64,000 nucleotides of DNA. It comes from Minisyncoccota bacterium (GTDB lineage Bacteria > Patescibacteriota > Minisyncoccia > UBA6257 > XYB1-36-10). The translations under genes were made by a program, and so were the position numbers. This document shows positions 20,796 through 58,565 of the stretch, piece after piece. Positions within the stretch are counted from its first letter, which is position 1. Each line of letters opens with the position of its first letter. The stretch is from the NCBI GenBank assembly GCA_041651415.1, contig JBAZJH010000001.1, positions 215,713 to 279,712 of the forward strand, given 5' to 3'. The notes under the pieces are model-generated. The model was not told the origin of the DNA. It saw nothing but the letters and a program-made list of their open reading frames with translations, and searched no databases.

Positions 20796-20858
20796 TATTT
20801 TCAAGCCTGCCTGCTGGTAGGCAGGGCAGGTAGGCGGCAGGCAGGAATTTAAGAATGG
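20796..20858. repeat. palindromic repeat family 2 (AAGCCTGCCTGC(C/T)GGTAGGCAGG…)
   Basis: TTCAAGCCTGCCTGCTGGTAGGCAGGGCAGGTAGGCGGCAGGCAGGAATTTAAGAA. Related copies at 57181-57212 and 58521-58565. Confidence 0.5.
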
Positions 20859-21093
20859 AATTAAAAATGAAGAAGAGTATAATAAAAAGTAGCATACAGA
20901 AAATCTTTTTTCCGTAAAGGTCCTCGGAAAAAAGAAATGCCTTGTCCCCTCTTTAATTAGGGGGGAATTTTTTATAAAAAATGGAAGGCGTTAATTATTT
21001 TCCTTATTCCAATGTTCTGCAGAACATTGGAATAAGAAATTCAAAAAATTGATTTTTGGCGGAAAAATAAGTATTATTTTAAAGAAAAAAGAA

Positions 21094-21157
21094 TGCCGGA
21101 TCGTCTAAAGGCCCGCCTCGACGAGCTGAGCTCGTCTCAGCGAGGCGGGTAGGACAT
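21094..21157 (+). pseudogene. duplicated 5' fragment of tRNA-Gln (first 26 nt) interrupted by a 38-nt palindromic insert
   Basis: TGCCGGATCGTCTAAAGG + [CCCGCCTCGACGAGCTGAGCTCGTCTCAGCGAGGCGGG] + TAGGACAT is identical to nt 1-26 of the intact tRNA-Gln at 21422. Similarity stops after that point. Confidence 0.55.
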
Positions 21158-21164
21158 AATAATA

Positions 21165-21413
21165 ATGCATATACTTCATCTGTTGAAAAGCATTAATTTT
21201 TCAAAAAGTTATATCGGTATAACTAATAATCCAGAAAGAAGATTAAAAGAACACAATTCTGGAAAAAGTTTTTACACAAAAAAGTATTCGCCATGGAAAA
21301 TAATTTATACCGAAGAATGTAAGAATTTCAAAGAAGCAAGAGAACGGGAAAAATTCTACAAATCAAGCGTAGGAAGAAGAGCTTTAAAAAAGATATTTGA
21401 TAAGTTAGGATAG
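21165..21413 (+). CDS. GIY-YIG nuclease-family small protein (UPF0213/YhbQ-like)
   Basis: …YIGITNNPERRLKEHNSG…TKKYSPW…EAREREKFYK… matches the GIY-YIG core (GIY…YIG…R…H…G…E). 82 aa. Bracketed by the tRNA-Gln 5' duplication. Confidence 0.8.
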   Translation: MHILHLLKSINFSKSYIGITNNPERRLKEHNSGKSFYTKKYSPWKIIYTEECKNFKEAREREKFYKSSVGRRALKKIFDKLG

Positions 21414-21421
21414 ATTATATT

Positions 21422-21495
21422 TGCCGGATCGTCTAAAGGTAGGACATGGGCCTTTGAAGCCCAGTATCTTGGTTCGATTCCAAGTCCGGCAGCCA
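21422..21495 (+). tRNA. tRNA-Gln (anticodon TTG), CCA encoded
   Basis: Folds by hand. Acceptor TGCCGGA/TCCGGCA with the U1:A72 pair typical of bacterial tRNA-Gln. D-stem GTCT/GGAC. Anticodon stem TGGGC/GCCCA with loop CTTTGAA. T-arm CTTGG-TTCGATT-CCAAG. Discriminator G, then CCA. Confidence 0.85.
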
Positions 21496-21639
21496 AAGTC
21501 AGCGTGGTATCATGGCAAGACCACCTTGCCTCAGTAATGCTCTAATTTCTCCTTCCCTAAAATGTGATACAGGCTGAGTGCCGTATTCAAGACAAAAAAT
21601 CACCGATTAATTTCGATGTTTTTTTGTTTTTTCTGGGAC

Positions 21640-21680: not shown

Positions 21681-21884
21681 ATGTTTGATATATCAAAAAA
21701 CTTCGGGAAAAAAGTCAGGGAAATACGCCTAAGAAATAAGATGTCTCAAGCCGGTTTAGCCAAGATTCTTGGGGTACACCCCACCGATATTAGTGGTATC
21801 GAGCGCGGCATGAGAAATATGGCTCTTAAGAATATCGAAAGGTTAGCAAAAGCTTTGAACGTATCAGTTAAAGATTTACTCTAA
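21681..21884 (+). CDS. XRE-family helix-turn-helix transcriptional regulator
   Basis: …MSQAGLAKILGVHPTDISGIERGMRNMALKNIERLAKAL… is a classic Cro/C1-type HTH. 67 aa. Confidence 0.85.
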   Translation: MFDISKNFGKKVREIRLRNKMSQAGLAKILGVHPTDISGIERGMRNMALKNIERLAKALNVSVKDLL

Positions 21885-21891
21885 TAACACC

Positions 21892-22734
21892 ATGGCTCAA
21901 CCATTTAACTCAAACCTCGTAATAGAGGAAAAAATATCGGAAGCCGATTTTAAGGCCTATAGCGTCGGCTATGAGCAGAATCAATTCAGGTTTAAGCCTC
22001 TCGTCGATTTGATATGTGAGGTTATTCCCGAATTTGCGCTCGGTTACCATGAAGGCAAGGAGACGCCAAATACACAGATTGTTTCTAGACTTCGCGAAGC
22101 TGCGCGTACGATCTATGGTACTAACAAATTCGAAAATCGTGGTGAGTTTGGCGAGTTAATACTCCATCTATTACTTCGTGATTTCCACGACACGATTCCG
22201 TTAGTTGCCAAGATATATTTTAAAGATGCACAAAATAACGCCGTCCACGGATTTGATGGGGTACATATAACAATTGAACCAGGAAAGAAGAAGTTGTGGC
22301 TCGGGGAATCCAAGATTTACTCCGACGGCTTTGCAGGGATTTCTTCCTTAGCGGAAGATCTCGAAAAACATATTCAGGCAGACTACTTGAAGTCTGAATT
22401 CAGCCTTATAAAGCACAAGCTTCCTGCCAACACTCCCGAAATAGAATACTGGCGGAACCTTATGGATGAACATAAAAATCTCGACGAGATATTAAACGGA
22501 ATCTGTATCCCGATGGTCTGTACCTACTCAAGCAAGACAGTTAAAGACCATAACGCAATTACCAAAGATTATGTTAATGCTTTTACCGAAGAGTGCCAAA
22601 AACTGAAAGAGAAATTCGATGAGAAAAAGATCGCGACGAATGTCGAGGTAATTCTTATGCTTTTACCTATACCAGATAAAGAGGAATTGGTGACCGAATT
22701 AGACGAGCGATTAAAGGCCATGCGCATGGACTAA
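21892..22734 (+). CDS. PD-(D/E)XK-like protein, probable HamA (DUF1837-like) effector of a Hachiman-type defence system
   Basis: 280 aa directly upstream of an SF2 helicase. Candidate catalytic triad D122 (GFDGVH)…E139-S-K141 (LWLGESKIY). Size and gene order match the HamA-HamB architecture. The DUF1837 assignment is from memory of the family, not from a search. Confidence 0.5.
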   Translation: MAQPFNSNLVIEEKISEADFKAYSVGYEQNQFRFKPLVDLICEVIPEFALGYHEGKETPNTQIVSRLREAARTIYGTNKFENRGEFGELILHLLLRDFHDTIPLVAKIYFKDAQNNAVHGFDGVHITIEPGKKKLWLGESKIYSDGFAGISSLAEDLEKHIQADYLKSEFSLIKHKLPANTPEIEYWRNLMDEHKNLDEILNGICIPMVCTYSSKTVKDHNAITKDYVNAFTEECQKLKEKFDEKKIATNVEVILMLLPIPDKEELVTELDERLKAMRMD

Positions 22735-22741
22735 AAAATTT

Positions 22742-24907
22742 ATGGATACCGAAGCCGCAAAATTGTTAATTACCGAGAATCGAGACCTGAGTTTCGAAGA
22801 GAGCTTTCAGCTTTCTCAGTTATGCTCCAAGCTATTAAATGTAAAAGACGCGTCCATTGCTGGACGCGATTTAATTATTCGAGTTTTGGATATTTGGGAA
22901 CGAATTCCCGCGTCAACTCAGACAATGTGGAAAGACTTGATCGAAGCCGCGGGATTCTATCCTTATCTTGAAAAACAGGATTTGTGCGGAGCCGGACTTT
23001 TGCGTCGCGAATATCATCGCTCAAAATATCTTTCGGAAGAAACCTACCTACACGCCGAACAGATGGATCTCTCCATCATGCTGGATACCTCAAACAGCTT
23101 GATAGTCAGTGCTCCAACAAGTTTTGGCAAGAGTAAACTCATTGAAGAAATCGTTGCCAGTGGGAAGTATAATAATATTGTAATCATTCAACCCACGCTG
23201 GCGCTTTTAGATGAGACCAGAAAAAAACTGAGAAAATATGCAAGCGACTACAACATGGTCGTTACCACCACCCAAAAGCCCCAAAGTGGCAAGAACCTCT
23301 TCTTGTTTACTGGCGAGCGCGTTGCGGAGTACGAGCATTTCCCAGCTGTTGATTTTTTTGTAATTGATGAATTCTATAAATTGAGTATCGAGCGCGACGA
23401 TGAGAGGGCGGCTTCACTCAACCATGCGTTGTATAAGTTGCTTAGCATGACTCACAAATTCTATATGCTCGGTCCCAGCATTAACTCCATACCGCCGGGA
23501 TTCGCTGAGCGACACAACGCTGTATGGTTTAAGACTGATTTTGCAACCGTTGCCGTAGATATTGAGCGGATTTGGGAGAAAGTCGGGAGAGCAAAAGAAG
23601 AAGAAAAAGAAGCGCCGTTATTTGACCTCTTAAAAGACCTCAGGGAGCCAACAATCATTTACTGCAGTTCGCCAAATAAAACAAACAAACTCACTCAAAG
23701 CTTTTTAAAATATGTACTATTGAATGAAAAGCTCAAATCTGAACTCCAAAATAATAATAACGACAACGCAATCGACTGGATAAAAGAGAATATTCATGAG
23801 GACTGGATTCTTGCGAAGTCGCTTAAGTACTCTATCGGAATGCATCATGGTGCACTTCCACGCCATCTTTCAAGCTCTATTATCGATTTTTTTAATAGGG
23901 GCGATGTACGTTATCTATTTTGCACCTCTACGTTAATTGAAGGGGTTAACACCTCGGCAAAAAATGTCGTCCTATTTGACGAGAAGAAGGGATCAAAGGC
24001 GATTGACTATTTCGATTTTAAGAATATAGCTGGCCGATCTGGCAGAATGAAAGAACACTTCATCGGCAAAGTTTTTCAATTTCATAAAGAACCTAAGCAA
24101 GAGGAGCTCGATATTGATATTCCACTTTTTACTCAAACCAATGCCCCTCTCGAATTACTTGTCCAAATTGATCCAAAGGAAATTAAAGAGACCGCGATGA
24201 AGAAGTTGGTTAAATTCTCAGAGCTAAGTAATTCAGTACAAGAACTTATAAAGCAAAACAAGGGAGTTTCCGTGGAAGGGCAAATGACAGTAATCGATAT
24301 TTTGAGAAATAATATCGATACTCTCCATGACAAGATTTCCTGGAGCGGCGTCCCATGTTATCCGGAACTGGTTTACGTCATTAGTTTGGCTTGGGAACAC
24401 TTTCGAACAGTTCGCTCGTCAGAGGGTGGCGCTCACAGTCCCAAACATCTCGCTACTCTCACGCTTCAATATATTGGCACAAAGTCGATCAGAGGCATGA
24501 TTGATAAGATGGTTAAAAGCGATTATTGGGTAGCGCACAGACCCGATATACAAGAACGCATTGAGATTATTGTGGATACGGTTTTGCAAGTAAACCAGCA
24601 CTGGTTTAGATATAAGCTACCGAAGTGGCTTTCTGTATTGTCTGAAATTCAGAAATTTGTGTGTCAAGAAAAAGGTTTGCAGTTTGGAGATTATGGCGTA
24701 TTAGCCAATCTCATAGAAAATTCTTTCTTGCCAAGTCATTTGGGAGTCCTTCTTGAATATGGCTTACCACCATCTGCTATTAGAAAAATTGGCGACTATA
24801 TTAAGGAAGAAATGGAGCCGGAGAAATTGATTGCGGCAATCAAACGCCTTGATCCAAATAAGTTAGGACTACTTCCTTACGAAGTAGACAAGTTAAAAGA
24901 TTTATAA
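22742..24907 (+). CDS. superfamily-2 helicase, probable HamB of a Hachiman-type defence system
   Basis: Motif I APTSFGKS, motif II FFVIDEF, helicase C-terminal domain with FCTSTLIEGVNT and motif VI NIAGRSGR. 721 aa. GC-richer codon usage than the core genome. Confidence 0.65.
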   Translation: MDTEAAKLLITENRDLSFEESFQLSQLCSKLLNVKDASIAGRDLIIRVLDIWERIPASTQTMWKDLIEAAGFYPYLEKQDLCGAGLLRREYHRSKYLSEETYLHAEQMDLSIMLDTSNSLIVSAPTSFGKSKLIEEIVASGKYNNIVIIQPTLALLDETRKKLRKYASDYNMVVTTTQKPQSGKNLFLFTGERVAEYEHFPAVDFFVIDEFYKLSIERDDERAASLNHALYKLLSMTHKFYMLGPSINSIPPGFAERHNAVWFKTDFATVAVDIERIWEKVGRAKEEEKEAPLFDLLKDLREPTIIYCSSPNKTNKLTQSFLKYVLLNEKLKSELQNNNNDNAIDWIKENIHEDWILAKSLKYSIGMHHGALPRHLSSSIIDFFNRGDVRYLFCTSTLIEGVNTSAKNVVLFDEKKGSKAIDYFDFKNIAGRSGRMKEHFIGKVFQFHKEPKQEELDIDIPLFTQTNAPLELLVQIDPKEIKETAMKKLVKFSELSNSVQELIKQNKGVSVEGQMTVIDILRNNIDTLHDKISWSGVPCYPELVYVISLAWEHFRTVRSSEGGAHSPKHLATLTLQYIGTKSIRGMIDKMVKSDYWVAHRPDIQERIEIIVDTVLQVNQHWFRYKLPKWLSVLSEIQKFVCQEKGLQFGDYGVLANLIENSFLPSHLGVLLEYGLPPSAIRKIGDYIKEEMEPEKLIAAIKRLDPNKLGLLPYEVDKLKDL

Positions 24908-24958: not shown

Positions 24959-25291
24959 TTGAAATTCATAGTCCGCAAAAAAGTATTAAAGCGCATAAGC
25001 ATTACCACACCCGATGGAGAGACGATAGAAGAAAAAGGAAATATGGATGTTGAAATAACAATTGATGCTTTACACTATAAAAGAAAGTACGACGCTGCAA
25101 TATTTTTTACCGGTGATTCTGATTTTTTAGCGTTAATAACCTATCTGCAGAGAGATGGAAAAAAAGTGTATGTATTTTCTTCGAAAAATAATATTTCCGA
25201 AGAGCTACGAACTGGAAGTGATGGGTATTCTGATGTGTTAATTATCACAAACGACATCTGGGGAAGAGAATTAAAACATCGTTTAAAATGA
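24959..25291 (+). CDS. truncated NYN (LabA/YacP-like PIN-fold) domain protein
   Basis: …MDVEITIDALHY…AIFFTGDSDFLALITYLQRDGKKVYVFS… matches the central and C-terminal NYN motifs (D…D and SGDSDF…GK.V). The N-terminal conserved Asp region is missing. Hairpin terminator at 25296-25320. Confidence 0.5.
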   Translation: MKFIVRKKVLKRISITTPDGETIEEKGNMDVEITIDALHYKRKYDAAIFFTGDSDFLALITYLQRDGKKVYVFSSKNNISEELRTGSDGYSDVLIITNDIWGRELKHRLK

Positions 25292-31038: not shown

Positions 31039-31147
31039 AAACGAAATTCAAGATTGAGTTTCACCCCGCCTACGACGGGGTTTTATTAAATCTTAGCCGT
31101 AAAAACCTCGCGCTAACGCGCAATGTTTCTACGGAGATTTAATAAAA
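31039..31147. repeat. intergenic mosaic palindromic repeat (modules B+C), nearly identical to the copy at 32572-32688
   Basis: …GATTGAGTTTCACCCCGCCTACGACGGGGTTTTATTAAATCTTAGCCGTAAAAACCTCGCGCTAACGCGCAATGTTTCTACGGAGATTTAATAAA. Confidence 0.7.
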
Positions 31148-32571: not shown

Positions 32572-32688
32572 GGAGATTTAAACGAAACTCAATTTTGAGT
32601 TTCACCCCGCCTACGACGGGGTTTTATTAAATCTTAGCCGTAAAAACCTTGCGCTAACGCGCAATGTTTCTACGGAGATTTAATAAAA
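32572..32688. repeat. intergenic mosaic palindromic repeat (modules B+C), near-identical direct copy of 31039-31147
   Basis: GGAGATTTAAACGAAACTCAATTTTGAGTTTCACCCCGCCTACGACGGGGTTTTATTAAATCTTAGCCGTAAAAACCTTGCGCTAACGCGCAATGTTTCTACGGAGATTTAATAAA. Confidence 0.7.
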
Positions 32689-52148: not shown

Positions 52149-52219
52149 CGGGCTGTCGTATAACGGAAGTACGCATGCATGGGGTGCATGTAGCCCGGGT
52201 TCAATTCCCGGCAGCCCGA
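52149..52219 (+). tRNA. tRNA-Pro (anticodon GGG)
   Basis: Acceptor CGGGCTG/CAGCCCG with the C1:G72 pair typical of tRNA-Pro. D-stem GTAT/GTAC. Anticodon stem CATGC/GCATG with loop ATGGGGT. T-arm CCGGG-TTCAATT-CCCGG. Discriminator A. CCA not encoded. Confidence 0.8.
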
Positions 52220-52366
52220 CAAAGATAAGCGCAAAAAAACAAAGTTTGATATAAAACAGATTTAAATCGGGTTCTTAGCCAGAGTCCGTCTTTAATGGAA
52301 ATTCCCGGCCCGCTTCGCCGAGACAAAAGCGAGGCGAGCAGCCCAACCAACTTTAACTTTTTTCTT

Positions 52367-56150: not shown

Positions 56151-56262
56151 GAAATGAAACTCCACGGCCTTACAGCCGTGGTATCTTCAAGTTTCACCCC
56201 GCCAAAGGCGGGGTTTTATTAAAAATGAAGCCCCGCAGCCCTATGGTCGTGGAGTTTCATTT
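56151..56262. repeat. intergenic mosaic palindromic repeat (A+B enclosed by a long inverted repeat)
   Basis: ATGAAACTCCACGGCCTTACAGCCGTGGTA…GTTTCACCCCGCCAAAGGCGGGGTTTTATTAAAAATGAAGCCCCGCAGCCCTATGGTCGTGGAGTTTCAT. Confidence 0.65.
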
Positions 56263-57120
56263 TTGGCAGTTCGGGCAAAATCTTGTTCCACGCCCGCCGA
56301 CCTTCATTTTTTCTATTTTTGATTTGCGGCAACGCGGGCACAATTTTTTTTCTTTTTGATAAACCTTAAGAAATTTAGCAAAACCTCCGGGATGGCCGTC
56401 GCTATTTCTAAAATCGCGAAAAGTAGTCCCCTTGTGTTTAATCGCTTTTTTCAAAATCGATTGGCATAGCAAAAATATTTTTTCTTTTTCTTTTTTTGTC
56501 AAACTTTCCAACTTTCTATCCGGCCGGACCTTCGCTTCAAAACAAATTTCATCCGCGTAAATATTGCCGATTCCCGCGATAAGACCTTGATTCATCAAAA
56601 CCGCTTTTATTTTTCCTTTTTTATTTTCCAATAATTTTAAAAAAGATTTTTTTGTAAAAGCGGGAGAAAGCGGGTCAAGCCCGTATTTTTCTTCCACTGC
56701 CATTTTTTCTTTCTCATTAACCAGTTTCATATAACCGAATTGGCGCATATCGTTAAAGAAAAGCCGGCTATTATCGGAAAAAGAAAAAATGATGTGCGAA
56801 TACTTATTCGGCAAATCTTTTAAGTCGCTATCGGAAATTTTGTGTCCGCCGGCAGTTATCTTTTCTTTTTTCTTATAAATAAGCTGGCCGGTCATTTTTA
56901 AGTGAGTAAGCAAAAAAAGGCCGTTTGAGAGATAAAAAATTAAAAGTTTTCCGGCGCGGGAAATTTTGATAAATTTTCGCCCTTCCATTTTTTTGATAAA
57001 TTCAGAAGCATTTCCGCGCACGATTTTTTTCTTTCTGACTTCCACTTTTTTTATCCTTTTTCCTAAGATGATTTTTTCTAAATCCTTTTTTATTGTTTCT
57101 ACTTCCGGAAGTTCGGGCAT
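56257..57120 (-). CDS. mutM: formamidopyrimidine-DNA glycosylase (Fpg/Nei family)
   Basis: N-terminal MPELPEVE (catalytic Pro2/Glu3), H2TH region, C-terminal zinc finger CPRC…CPNC. Confidence 0.85.
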   Translation of the reverse strand: MPELPEVETIKKDLEKIILGKRIKKVEVRKKKIVRGNASEFIKKMEGRKFIKISRAGKLLIFYLSNGLFLLTHLKMTGQLIYKKKEKITAGGHKISDSDLKDLPNKYSHIIFSFSDNSRLFFNDMRQFGYMKLVNEKEKMAVEEKYGLDPLSPAFTKKSFLKLLENKKGKIKAVLMNQGLIAGIGNIYADEICFEAKVRPDRKLESLTKKEKEKIFLLCQSILKKAIKHKGTTFRDFRNSDGHPGGFAKFLKVYQKEKKLCPRCRKSKIEKMKVGGRGTRFCPNCQK

Positions 57121-57168
57121 GGTAATTATGTCATTTTTACGACTTTAAATAGGTGTTTTTATTCCGCC

Positions 57169-57549
57169 TGTCATTCCAGCGAAAGCCTGCCTGCCGGTAG
57201 GTATGGCTGGAATCTAGGTTAATTGATAAATTTATAATATAAATCCTCCCATTTTGGGTTCTCTTTTTCAATAAGCCCCAATTTCCAATTTCTTTTCCAT
57301 GCTTTCAAATTTTTTTTCTCTTTTTATTGCATCGTAAGCATTAACAGTTTCTTCATAATAAACAAGCTTATCAACTCCGTATTTTTTAGTGAATCCTTCA
57401 ACTAGTTTATTTTTATGCTCTCCAATCCTTCTTAAAAGATCAGAGGTAACGCCAACATACAAGGTACCATTTCTTTTACTGGCTAAAATGTAGACGTAAT
57501 AAGATTTCATAAATAACTTTCTGGATTCCCGCCTTCGCGGGAATGACAG
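57169..57549. mobile_element. ~380-bp mini-element: GIY-YIG gene bounded by 14-bp terminal inverted repeats CTGTCATTCC(A/C)GCG, each end forming an ATTCC…GGAAT hairpin
   Basis: Left end CTGTCATTCCAGCG at 57169-57182. Right end CGCGGGAATGACAG at 57536-57549, whose reverse complement CTGTCATTCCCGCG matches 13/14 positions. The left hairpin also embeds a family-2 palindrome (GCCTGCCTGCCGGTAGG). Confidence 0.5.
57268..57510 (-). CDS. GIY-YIG nuclease-family small protein (UPF0213/YhbQ-like)
   Basis: MKSYYVYILASKRNGTLYVGVTSDLLRRIGEHK…TKKYGV…LVYYEE…REKK… is a textbook GIY-YIG core. 80 aa. Confidence 0.85.
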   Translation of the reverse strand: MKSYYVYILASKRNGTLYVGVTSDLLRRIGEHKNKLVEGFTKKYGVDKLVYYEETVNAYDAIKREKKFESMEKKLEIGAY

Positions 57550-57627
57550 ACAAGAAAAGAGTTTTGCATCTATCTTAAATTCAATAAAAAGAGATCTTAC
57601 AGAAATGACTGGAAAAAATAATAAAAA

Positions 57628-58467
57628 TTATTTTGTTATTTCTCTTAAGATACCAATATTTTTTTTATCGGGACCAAGATTATCAAAACCGGGCACTTCC
57701 AAAATCCAGGGAATGTTTCTGAAGTGAGACACTTGCGCAAGATTTTTGAAGCCGGATAAGCCGATTTTTCCTTCACCGATGTTCTCATGGCGGTCGTGAT
57801 GGGAGTCCGCGGCGGTTTTGGAATCATTGGCGTGAATCAAGGCAATTTTTTCCAGGCCGATTTTTTTGTCCCAAACGCTGAAAAAAGTTTTTATTTCGAC
57901 CGGAGAATATTCTTTAATCATCCCCGATTCAAAAGCGTGCGCGGTGTCAAAACAAACTTGAACTCGGGCAGATTTGACTTTTTTGATAATGGCAGAAATT
58001 TCTTCCAAACCGCCGACTTTACCGCCGCCGCCGGCATCATTTTCCAAAATCAATTTTGATTTTCCTTTGACGTTTTTCAGAACTTCCTTGATGCCGGAGA
58101 CAATAAAATCAATCCCTTTTTCTTTCGCCATTTTTTGGGAAGAGCCGACGTGGAAAACCAAACCGAAAGCGCCGAGCGCTTCCGTAATTTTAAGATGGGC
58201 GGATAAGCTGGCAACAGATTTTTTTCTTAAATCGGGAATAGGAGAAGCCAGATTAACAAGATAAGCGGAATGAAGAAAAACCGGACCGAGGCCGGATTCT
58301 TTTAAAGCTCTTTCATATTTTTCTATTTCAGCGGAAGAAGGAATTTTGGCCTGCCACTTTCGCGGTGAGGCGCCAAAAATTTGAAAGCAGTCCGCGCCGA
58401 TTTTTTGCGCGTTTTCCACTCCCCTATAAAACCCGCCAGCGACAGAAATATGGGCGCCGATTTTCAT
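57628..58467 (-). CDS. nfo: endonuclease IV (AP endonuclease family 2)
   Basis: MKIGAHISVAGG… TIM barrel with His/Asp/Glu metal ligands (…FHVGSS…, …LENDAGGG…, …CFDTAHAF…). Confidence 0.85.
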   Translation of the reverse strand: MKIGAHISVAGGFYRGVENAQKIGADCFQIFGASPRKWQAKIPSSAEIEKYERALKESGLGPVFLHSAYLVNLASPIPDLRKKSVASLSAHLKITEALGAFGLVFHVGSSQKMAKEKGIDFIVSGIKEVLKNVKGKSKLILENDAGGGGKVGGLEEISAIIKKVKSARVQVCFDTAHAFESGMIKEYSPVEIKTFFSVWDKKIGLEKIALIHANDSKTAADSHHDRHENIGEGKIGLSGFKNLAQVSHFRNIPWILEVPGFDNLGPDKKNIGILREITK

Positions 58468-58520: not shown

Positions 58521-58565
58521 CTCAAGCCTGCCTGCCGGTAGGCAGGAATTTGAGAATAGATTGAA
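58521..58565. repeat. palindromic repeat family 2 copy with flanking inverted arms
   Basis: TCTATTCTTAAATTCTCAAGCCTGCCTGCCGGTAGGCAGGAATTTGAGAATAGATT. Centre CCTGCCTGCCGGTAGGCAGG, arms AATCTATTCT…/…AGAATAGATT. Confidence 0.55.

Follow-up and report, generated by a model that had tools for sequence, protein, structure and literature searches.

What does a split piece of a tRNA gene do directly in front of a small nuclease gene that runs up to the intact copy of the same tRNA? The question is raised by a locus in a 64,000-nucleotide stretch of the genome of a Minisyncoccota bacterium (GenBank contig JBAZJH010000001.1, positions 215,713 to 279,712; this whole stretch is referred to below as the window). 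The first 26 nt of a tRNA-Gln gene are found there twice, and the extra copy, which is interrupted by a GC-rich palindrome, leads into an open reading frame (ORF) for an 82-aa GIY-YIG protein that stops just short of the complete tRNA-Gln. A first-pass annotation had read this arrangement as the footprint of a small element, equipped with a GIY-YIG gene only, which had inserted into or recombined at the 5' half of the tRNA and had regenerated an intact gene. In its core, a minute GIY-YIG-only element that keeps the tRNA intact, that reading agrees with the comparisons made here, but the layout recurs and the locus is not a one-off footprint. We argue that it may well be a member of a large family of selfish homing-type cassettes of ~0.3 kb which reside inside tRNA transcription units, and a typical and apparently intact one. 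The arrangement is widespread and apparently undescribed.

The split tRNA-Gln copy and its GIY-YIG gene

The 18-mer TGCCGGATCGTCTAAAGG, which represents the acceptor 5' strand, the D-stem 5' strand and the D-loop up to G18G19 of tRNA-Gln, has exactly two matches in the window (21094-21111 and 21422-21439), and no others were found there even when 3 mismatches were allowed. The chance expectation for such a match in the window is 0.03. The sequence GGTAGGACAT, corresponding to tRNA-Gln positions 17-26, is likewise present in exact copies at 21148-21157 and 21438-21447. On the basis of these exact repeats we conclude that positions 1-26 of tRNA-Gln are duplicated 328 bp upstream, in agreement with the distance of ~330 bp first proposed, and the gene at 21422 is called as an intact tRNA by both ARAGORN and Rfam. 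The duplicate is interrupted by an insert of 38 nt which follows G18G19, placing the split in the D-loop as had been claimed, with a boundary that is ambiguous by the dinucleotide GG. The insert had been described as a perfect palindrome. This was an overstatement, as its 19+19 arms are 79% complementary. In the predicted fold (-31.2 kcal/mol, z = -3.2), a perfect 9-bp outer stem (CCCGCCTCG/CGAGGCGGG) has inside it a 7-bp hairpin, which is off-centre, and a 5-nt bulge. The insert occurs a single time in the window, the overall G+C content of which is 39%.

The components of the locus are tightly packed (Table 1). The ATG of the ORF lies 7 nt beyond the end of the fragment and its stop codon lies 8 nt before tRNA-Gln, a gap so short that it leaves no room for a separate tRNA promoter. 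A promoter-like sequence picked up by a consensus scan just 5' of the fragment is a candidate for a promoter shared by the fragment, the ORF and the tRNA. A scan of the window at Rfam gathering thresholds returned three tRNAs and no other structured RNA family, and the downstream tRNA is complete on its own; a group I intron, a known structured RNA and a split tRNA were rejected as explanations for the locus on these grounds.

The assignment of the ORF to the GIY-YIG superfamily is secure, with a PF01541 match over residues 3-70 of 60.9 bits (cut-off 22.6, E=1.4e-16), and the ORF does follow the fragment directly as had been stated. Its product is 100% identical to an NCBI protein from a metagenome-assembled genome (MAG) of Candidatus Paceibacterota. 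Residues Y16, G18, R26, E29, H30, N31 and E62, which are invariant across the family, are all present. A profile search of the Protein Data Bank (PDB) placed the UPF0213 proteins BH0048 (1zg2, 3e-11) and EF2693 (1ywl, 6e-11) ahead of Slx1 (1e-6 to 1e-5) and I-TevI (2e-3). The AlphaFold2 model (pLDDT 90.9) contains a three-stranded sheet and helices in the alpha/beta arrangement of the GIY-YIG fold, and Foldseek ranked its structural neighbours in a similar order, with UPF0213 (BH0048) first, Slx1 next (TM about 0.6-0.7) and then I-TevI and the UvrC catalytic domain, the top probability being 1.0. Judged from these profiles and the predicted structure, the protein belongs to the minimal Slx1/UPF0213 branch of the superfamily and has no auxiliary domain. 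Its family is large, comprising 6,637 clusters at 50% identity (E<=1e-10, from a profile search of 1.84 billion representatives). The 2.9 million viral contigs of IMG/VR contain only 3 weak relatives, and an origin as a phage-borne Seg-type gene was rejected for this reason.

Recurrence, conservation and variants of the arrangement

Genome and metagenome collections yielded 164 loci at which the ORF has a relative (L001-L004 and 160 others), which together with the window locus make 165. Their hosts are Patescibacteria, Bacteroidota, Ignavibacteria and others, and include the isolates Parafilimonas terrae, Mangrovibacterium marinum, Aequorivita sinensis and Algoriphagus sp. as well as long-read assemblies. 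Locus L001 comes from a different sample that was assembled independently (Logan SRR27710297). Its ORF is 87% identical and sits beside an ortholog of the same efflux-adaptor gene, and the order of 5' fragment, palindrome, ORF and start of tRNA-Gln is the same as in the window. L002, L003 and L004 have ORFs of 59-62% identity, each directly upstream of a tRNA-Gln and each preceded by its own, differently sequenced tRNA-Gln 5' fragment, which a GC-rich palindrome splits after the D-loop GG.

A tRNA on the same strand, starting between -40 and +200 nt from the ORF stop, is present at 97 of the 165 loci. The tRNAs concerned are mostly Arg (45 loci, five anticodons) and Gln (UUG at 23, CUG at 15), followed by Asn (6), Leu (3) and Cys (2), with Ser, Gly and Tyr also represented; at 27 other loci, a same-strand tRNA is found just upstream of the ORF instead. 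Counting a pseudo-copy as present when its alignment score lay above the 95th percentile of control regions, we found a 5' copy of the locus's own tRNA upstream of the ORF in 80 of 88 non-redundant loci with a downstream tRNA (median score 52 versus 15 for the controls). In the 50 best-scoring loci, identity extends to 1866 of the 1907 aligned tRNA-derived positions (97.9%). All but one of these 50 contain at least one insert of 12 nt or more, and the inserts are palindromic. That the palindrome of the window is an incidental later split is not supported: palindromes of the same family occupy the same D-loop site in 49 of these 50 loci. Small GIY-YIG ORFs beside tRNA 5' fragments, for which a wider search had been proposed, are present at many loci, with several tRNAs and in many phyla. 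At least 11 tRNA isotypes are occupied (Gln, Arg with 5 anticodons, Asn, Leu, Cys, Tyr, Gly, Ser, Glu, Phe and Val). ORF clades follow both the tRNA type and the host group, and the tRNA type is tracked across phyla; ORFs that are 71-79% identical can nevertheless be found at different tRNA species, such as Arg-CCG and Ser-GCU within the single locus L136. We found no published description of a unit made up of a palindrome-split pseudo-tRNA, a mini GIY-YIG gene and a tRNA, in a literature search that was incomplete and had most subscription journals outside its reach.

The close spacing is also a general property of these loci. The median distance from the fragment end to the ATG is 8 nt (80 loci), and at 43 of the 80 the ORF stop codon falls inside the first 10-23 nt of the tRNA. 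Examples include L012, L015 and L042 (gap -10) and L002 and L086 (gap -15); the stop may, for instance, be provided by U8-A9-G10 of tRNA-Arg. In such cases, processing by RNase P would remove the stop codon and create a non-stop mRNA, which may act as a built-in limit on expression of the nuclease. The window locus, with its stop upstream of the tRNA, is exempt. At several loci (L103, L009/L108/L109, L153 and L089) the upstream 5' fragment and the tRNA-Gln beside it do not agree in the acceptor stem or D-stem, for example with TGCGGGATCGTC in the fragment and TGCCGGGTCTGC in the tRNA. Such mismatching fragments may have their origin in a different tRNA-Gln gene or in a foreign donor.

Comparison of the window with the syntenic L001 locus shows that the ORF is under purifying selection (dN 0.060, dS 0.62, dN/dS 0.10). 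The spacer upstream of the fragment is unalignable between the two, whereas the fragment and palindrome differ at just 2 of 64 positions where ~27 differences (42%) would be expected neutrally at a dS of 0.62 (P = 7e-13; P = 2e-5 if the third-codon-position difference of 22% is taken as the neutral rate). The palindrome itself is identical at 37 of 38 positions in L001 and at 38 of 38 in L093, even though the L093 ORF has only 67% nucleotide identity and its third positions only 55% (P = 1e-10); the tRNA acceptor stem of L093 differs from that of the window. Given the dN/dS of the ORF and the almost unchanged fragment and palindrome, we conclude that the ORF, the tRNA-derived arms and the palindrome are all maintained. 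Together with the layout shared with L001, these values run counter to the picture of a single event in decay.

The palindromic inserts are GC-rich and have related ends of the form CCYGCC...GGCRGG, a family to which the 38-nt insert of the window also belongs. Bacteroidota have, for instance, CCTGCCTGCCGGCAGGCAGG, Ignavibacteria CCTGCCCGACTTG...CAAGGCGGG and Patescibacteria CCCGCCTCGAC...GTCGAGGCGGG. GC hairpins with perfect stems reach 1.8 per kb up to 150 nt from the ORFs, compared with 0.06-0.2 per kb beyond 300 nt, and palindromes of the CCYGCC..GGCRGG type are enriched 10-20 fold within 150 nt of related ORFs. Their insertion sites are strongly fixed, being G(G/A)ATA|G for 42 of 51 inserts in tRNA-Arg copies and the D-loop GG for 20 of 24 inserts in tRNA-Gln copies. 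Their orientation is free: in L085, L090, L091 and L105, the same site holds the palindrome of the window in its flipped, reverse-complement form. Neither hairpin stability (21 hairpins favouring the sense strand versus 25 the antisense) nor the number of G-U pairs (34 versus 39) shows a sense-strand preference. A hairpin function confined to the sense-strand RNA is unsupported by these equal counts, which leave room for an RNA role that is independent of orientation, and the palindrome behaves as a DNA-level or orientation-independent element.

Palindromes are also seen in tandem and outside tRNA copies. In L005, L099 and L010, the single D-loop site of the pseudo-copy holds 3-4 tandem palindrome units of ~45 nt. 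Within the window, palindromes of the type CCTGCCTGC(C/T)GGTAGGCAGG lie in ordinary intergenic DNA at 20806-20845 and 58526-58546, and also at 57186-57195. The 20-mer at 58526 also exists, letter for letter, as the interrupting palindrome of tRNA-Arg pseudo-copies in Bacteroidota (e.g. L015 and L059) and is nested within a longer palindrome, ATTCTCAAG...AATTTGAGAAT.

Use of the tRNA 5' half, which had been singled out as unusual, is a property of one class only and not the defining trait of the element. In a mirror class, the order is an intact tRNA (Glu-UUC, Arg-CCG, Gly, Phe and others), its terminator, the ORF and then a copy of the tRNA 3' part, which often takes in the terminator as well. 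Of 32 non-redundant loci, 26 have such a 3' copy, and with few exceptions a palindrome interrupts its T-loop at GGTTC|GAATCC. Full-length tRNA copies, too, contain inserted palindromes wherever there is a spare (L027, L115, L065 and L071), and some of these pseudo-tRNAs hold palindromes in the D-stem, D-loop and T-loop together. Mirror-class units also occur in tandem arrays. In the isolate Parafilimonas terrae DSM 28286 (L069, 2130-2900), two tandem units of ~360 bp, each consisting of terminator, ORF and palindrome-split tRNA-Glu 3' copy, are present, and the first ORF has acquired a stop codon (TGG to TAG). An array of 4-5 such units is found in a long-read Lewinellaceae MAG (L083, 1400-2800), with frameshifts in some units that could be long-read errors.

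The duplicated tRNA piece can also be found without the nuclease gene. In L039 (1700-2320), a 3' copy that a palindrome splits in the T-loop begins 20 nt behind tRNA-Arg(CCU), with no ORF in between, and two tandem 5' pseudo-copies of tRNA-Arg(CCG), again ORF-less and with the palindrome at 26/27, precede the intact tRNA-Arg(CCG). The window itself contains a probable second instance, a 3' pseudo-copy of tRNA-Pro (Table 1) with the layout CGGGTTC[25 nt]AATTCCCG[CCCGCTTCG..CGAGGCGAG hairpin]GCAGCCCAAC. Two interruptions are present, 25 nt in the T-loop (GGTTC|AATTCC) and, at the acceptor boundary, the CCCGCTTCG..CGAGGCGAG hairpin, which is of the same family as the hairpin in the tRNA-Gln fragment; 24 of the 25 tRNA-derived positions of the pseudo-copy match and it scores 30.3 against 23.6 for the 95th percentile of controls. 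A partial duplicate lacking the ORF had been named as an observation that would count against a GIY-YIG element. Such copies do exist, but we read them as relics or non-autonomous copies, and the tRNA-Pro pseudo-copy looks like a relic or non-autonomous copy of a mirror-class module.

Table 1. Positions of the features at the tRNA-Gln and tRNA-Pro loci of the window.
Feature	Positions	Strand	Remarks
Promoter-like site, TTGATT-17 nt-TATTAT	21049..21077	+	Consensus scan only; just 5' of tRNA fragment
Displaced tRNA-Gln positions 1-18	21094..21111	+	Exact 18-nt repeat of 21422-21439; kept in L001
GC-rich 38-nt imperfect palindrome (CCCGCCTCG...CGAGGCGGG)	21112..21149	none	In D-loop of displaced copy
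Displaced tRNA-Gln positions 19-26 (TAGGACAT)	21150..21157	+	
ORF for 82-aa minimal GIY-YIG nuclease (Slx1/UPF0213 branch)	21165..21413	+	Pfam PF01541, E=1.4e-16
Intact tRNA-Gln(UUG), CCA encoded	21422..21495	+	ARAGORN; Rfam RF00005, 61.7 bits
ORF-less 3' pseudo-copy of tRNA-Pro, probable second instance	52268..52347	+	47 nt 3' of tRNA-Pro 52149-52220

A proposed homing-type cassette and its alternatives

Relative to an uninterrupted tRNA-Gln gene, the extra DNA at the window locus consists of the palindrome, tRNA positions 19-26, 7 nt, the GIY-YIG ORF, 8 nt and tRNA positions 1-18, all placed at D-loop site 18/19. In the mirror class it consists of tRNA positions 57-76 with the terminator, the ORF, tRNA positions Y-56 and the palindrome, placed at T-loop site 56/57 (Y being the position near the anticodon stem-loop at which the mirror-class copy starts). 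A homing insertion into a cut site has just this geometry, with the addition that the insert carries the missing tRNA end. The cassette ends with replacement tRNA positions 1-18, and an intact tRNA is therefore regenerated on its right side while the 5' part of the original gene ends up on the left. The family also displays some of the traits of a homing gene, namely a patchy distribution, the occupation of new sites (at least 11 isotypes) and degenerate copies (arrays, including one with an in-frame stop).

From this anatomy and from the precedent of phage SegB (see below), we infer cleavage, homing and a role for the palindrome as follows. The 82-aa Slx1-like nuclease would break tRNA genes in the D-loop ('A-box') region or, in the mirror form, in the T-loop ('B-box') at GGTTC|GAATCC. 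No blocks of sequence in tRNA genes are better conserved than these two, to which the fixed positions of the palindromes point indirectly. A copy that bears the cassette would then act as template for recombinational repair, which would spread the cassette and build the tandem arrays. The ORF, lacking a promoter of its own, would be transcribed from the tRNA promoter together with the tRNA, with the mirror-class ORF lying just behind the tRNA terminator. The palindrome would destroy the nuclease target in the displaced copy. It would also cause recombination between the right-hand repeat segments to yield a disrupted, dead tRNA, such that most routes to loss of the cassette would be lethal and the cassette would be stabilised.

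Several observations weigh against this scheme. No empty allele was found at any locus, insertion and mobility being what we infer from the layout; homologs of the upstream neighbour, a 593-aa efflux adaptor, were used to look for an empty site and none was obtained, the nearest homologs other than L001 being ~50% identical and non-syntenic, with a sigma-factor operon upstream and no tRNA. The regenerated tRNA keeps the presumed target and so leaves the cassette open to attack by its own nuclease, in contrast to classical homing insertions. Purifying selection has persisted over the long term at the locus shared by the window and L001, which is unlike the prediction for a fixed and purely selfish homing gene and, at a site that is vertically inherited, could indicate a host function. 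The conservation of the palindrome exceeds what a mere disruptor would need. As for the protein, position 5 (the Tyr of the GIY motif) is His in the window, whereas it is Tyr in L001 and in at least 90% of relatives; the catalytic domain takes up all 82 residues and leaves no DNA-binding module for a long target; and we know of no nuclease activity for this GIY-YIG subfamily. Finally, the near-absence of the family from viral contigs offers no vector for its horizontal spread.

The behaviour of the palindromes suggests one alternative, in which they are themselves the primary mobile units, similar to REP or MITE elements, and enter D- and T-loop sites cut by a dedicated GIY-YIG nuclease that acts in trans, in the role that RAYT has for REPs. 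Insertions would survive only at duplicated tRNA segments, and the order of fragment, ORF and tRNA would be a product of survivorship as opposed to a unit that moves. This would account well for palindromes that are conserved far beyond their flanks, occur in both orientations at the same site and form tandem runs of 3-4 units (L005, L099 and L010), as well as for their presence in ORF-less tRNA copies (L039 and the window tRNA-Pro), in full-length tRNA copies with a spare (L027 and L115) and, as CCTGCCTGCCGGTAGGCAGG copies, in ordinary intergenic DNA of the window; hairpin stability without strand bias also argues for a DNA-level element. It sits less comfortably with their low copy number (one copy of the CCCGCCTCG type in 64 kb, three places with the CCTGCC type) and with their clustering beside the ORFs in place of a dispersed distribution. 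A mechanism by which a free palindrome would insert is not known, and the position of the ORF between two tRNA copies with almost no spacer is left unexplained. We consider this reading unlikely, though a serious contender. In another alternative, the gene encodes an Slx1-like nuclease with a host role, either linked to tRNA or in DNA repair, which is deliberately co-transcribed with the tRNA; the pseudo-tRNA and hairpin would then be an RNA leader or trailer, serving as an mRNA-stabilising stem-loop, a processing signal or a decoy. Stem-loops at transcript ends stabilise mRNAs, and the hairpin is 5'-terminal in the ORF transcript of one class and 3'-terminal in that of the mirror class. The dN/dS of 0.10 over a dS of 0.62 at a vertically inherited locus, the strong constraint on fragment and hairpin, and the location of a second GIY-YIG paralog in the window between endonuclease IV-like and Fpg genes are all in keeping with such a role, as is the reported fusion of a prokaryotic Slx1-like domain to a TrmH (Gm18) tRNA methyltransferase (PMC1564403). 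Against it, the partner tRNAs vary widely, from Gln, Asn, Leu and Cys to Tyr, Gly, Ser, Glu, Phe, Val and Arg with 5 anticodons, the arrays with inactivated copies and the ORF-less relics resemble selfish turnover, and the hairpins have no sense-strand bias in either stability (21 vs 25) or G-U pairs (34 vs 39). The duplicated tRNA piece would moreover be unneeded by a host gene, and overall we regard a host function as rather improbable.

The idea closest to that of the first-pass annotation is a circle of ~330 bp, excised via the tRNA repeats, which integrates by a Campbell-style single crossover in the 18-nt arm, the crossover being brought about by homologous recombination or by a hitherto unrecognised activity of the GIY-YIG protein. 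It has the merit of yielding the order of fragment, ORF and tRNA automatically, and the topology of both classes is that expected from a single crossover between a circle with a tRNA segment and a chromosomal tRNA; direct repeats that stay ~98% identical and the variable copy number in tandem arrays fit equally well. A double-stranded circle of ~330 bp is very stiff, however, a GIY-YIG protein is not known as a recombinase, and arms of 18 + 8 nt are under the length that efficient RecA recombination usually needs, which together make this route doubtful at best. More speculative still is a reading in which the palindrome-split pseudo-tRNA is a programmable targeting adapter, with the palindrome as a handle for the nuclease and the tRNA-derived arms, as RNA or as extruded single-stranded DNA, pairing with the tRNA gene and positioning the cut at the point where the palindrome lies. 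This would explain why the arms are ~98% identical to the local tRNA, whichever it is, why conservation of the palindrome covers its sequence as well as its structure and how at least 11 tRNA isotypes can be served by 80-aa proteins that barely differ, and we mention it as a long shot. In a variant suggested by analogy, the nuclease might read the cloverleaf of extruded tRNA DNA, which resembles a four-way junction, in the way that Slx1 reads branched DNA. A chance repeat or an assembly artefact deserves scarcely any credence. The window does come from a MAG, and short repeats can cause mis-assembly, but the same layout is present in the independently assembled L001 and in ~100 further loci, including isolates and long-read assemblies, and the 18-mer match has a chance expectation of only 0.03; recurrence effectively refutes this explanation.

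Precedents and other features of the window

The closest precedent for a homing-type cassette at tRNA genes is phage SegB. In phages T4 and T6, this free-standing GIY-YIG homing endonuclease is encoded in a tRNA cluster, recognises a site in tRNA genes whose core has been mapped by experiment to the T-loop block GGTTCRANTCC, and homes with an efficiency of nearly 100% (PMC2330249). Its nuclease activity combined with homologous recombination gives rise to tandem [tRNA-Tyr + segB] repeats, with microhomology between the tRNA 5' end and the segB 3' end, and segB genes are enriched beside tRNAs of many isotypes (PMC13096335). The parallels with the loci described here include a GIY-YIG gene among tRNA genes of many isotypes, tandem units of tRNA and nuclease gene, and a SegB target motif (GGTTCRANTCC) that is the very motif split by the palindrome in mirror-class pseudo-copies. 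SegB differs in being a phage gene of the I-TevI/Seg branch with a C-terminal extension, of which 28 residues can be lost in the amplified unit, whereas the window protein is an 82-aa domain-only member of the Slx1/UPF0213 group, chromosomal and almost absent from viral contigs. Neither a palindrome-split pseudo-tRNA nor a fixed unit of fragment, ORF and tRNA is reported for SegB loci. In sequence and fold, the closest proteins are those of UPF0213 (BH0048, 1zg2; EF2693, 1ywl) and Slx1, which share a minimal GIY-YIG domain without a DNA-binding extension. Slx1, in contrast, is a structure-specific nuclease which requires Slx4, and neither linkage to tRNA genes nor flanking repeats are described for UPF0213/Slx1-like proteins in the papers that we searched.

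Islands that integrate at tRNA genes carry a piece of the tRNA, such that the intact tRNA is regenerated and a partial copy remains at the other end (PMC9897764). Regeneration of the tRNA from a carried copy is thus a feature that tyrosine-integrase islands and prophages have in common with the unit in the window. These islands are 9 to >100 kb in size, encode an integrase and mostly use the 3' part of the tRNA, whereas the window unit is ~0.3 kb, has no integrase, takes the 5' part of the tRNA (in the mirror class, the 3' part) and has a palindrome-split copy and no 3' att repeat. A Pfam search identified no integrase between the fragment and tRNA-Gln or directly downstream, and the 3' 23-mer of tRNA-Gln has no second, att-type copy within the window, which fits the original contrast with classical elements that use an integrase and the 3' end. 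The module therefore resembles both a SegB-type homing gene and a tRNA island, yet fails the defining features of both.

Two further systems have features in common with the cassette. In fungal mitochondria, free-standing GIY-YIG ORFs such as that at Allomyces atp6 insert at gene ends and duplicate the terminal segment that they displace, and the same mitochondria also hold GC-rich, mobile double-hairpin elements. Here too, a replacement gene end is brought in and the host gene is kept intact. The differences are that these are organellar protein genes, that the insertion is at a gene end and not at an internal loop site, and that the unit does not regularly include the hairpins. REP elements with their associated RAYT transposase form REPtrons (PMC3733652). 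They are comparable in that short GC-rich palindromes in both orientations are linked to one dedicated nuclease gene. RAYT is an HUH (Y1) enzyme, however, while the gene associated with the palindromes here is of the GIY-YIG type, and REPs are highly repeated, extragenic and not located in tRNA pseudo-copies.

If the homing-type reading is correct, these cassettes would be among the smallest self-contained selfish units in bacteria, consisting of ~250 bp of coding sequence, a piece of tRNA and a palindrome, and would have resided unnoticed in essential tRNA transcription units of Bacteroidota, Patescibacteria, Ignavibacteria and others. They would exemplify a DNA-level way to invade an essential RNA gene that cannot be spliced, in which a replacement end is carried along and the displaced copy is 'poisoned'. 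They would also place the large orphan set of standalone Slx1/UPF0213-like proteins in a biological setting for the first time, extend the recently shown link between SegB-type GIY-YIG genes, tRNA genes and segmental amplification to bacterial chromosomes, and account for a class of partial tRNA genes that confuse tRNA annotation. Because cultured isolates are among the carriers, the model would be directly testable.

The DNA 3' of tRNA-Gln encodes an HTH_3 gene (21681-21884), HamA (21892-22734) and a HamB-like helicase (22742-24907), which constitute a Hachiman defence system, followed by an ORF with an NYN domain (24959-25291). The presence of the Hachiman genes could be taken to suggest a classical island at the 3' end of tRNA-Gln, but this was rejected given that the tRNA 3' end is unrepeated in the window. 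A second small GIY-YIG ORF (YVYILASKRNGTLYVGVTSDLLRRIGEHK) is located at 57271-57510 on the - strand, between the endonuclease IV-like gene (57628-58467) and the Fpg gene (56257-57120). It is of another subfamily, its C-terminus looks truncated and it has no adjoining tRNA. Its flanks (57150-57560) contain the hairpins ATTCCCGC-GAAG-GCGGGAAT and ATTCCAGC..GCTGGAAT and a 10-bp inverted repeat, CTGTCATTCC/GGAATGACAG. With inverted in place of direct repeats, a different subfamily and no adjacent tRNA, this paralog was not counted as the same module. Elsewhere in the window, near tRNA-Val, a direct repeat of ~65 nt (gagtttcaccccgcctacgacggggttttattaaatcttagccgtaaaaacctYgcgctaacgcg) is present at 31055-31120 and 32592-32660, the two copies being ~1.5 kb apart.

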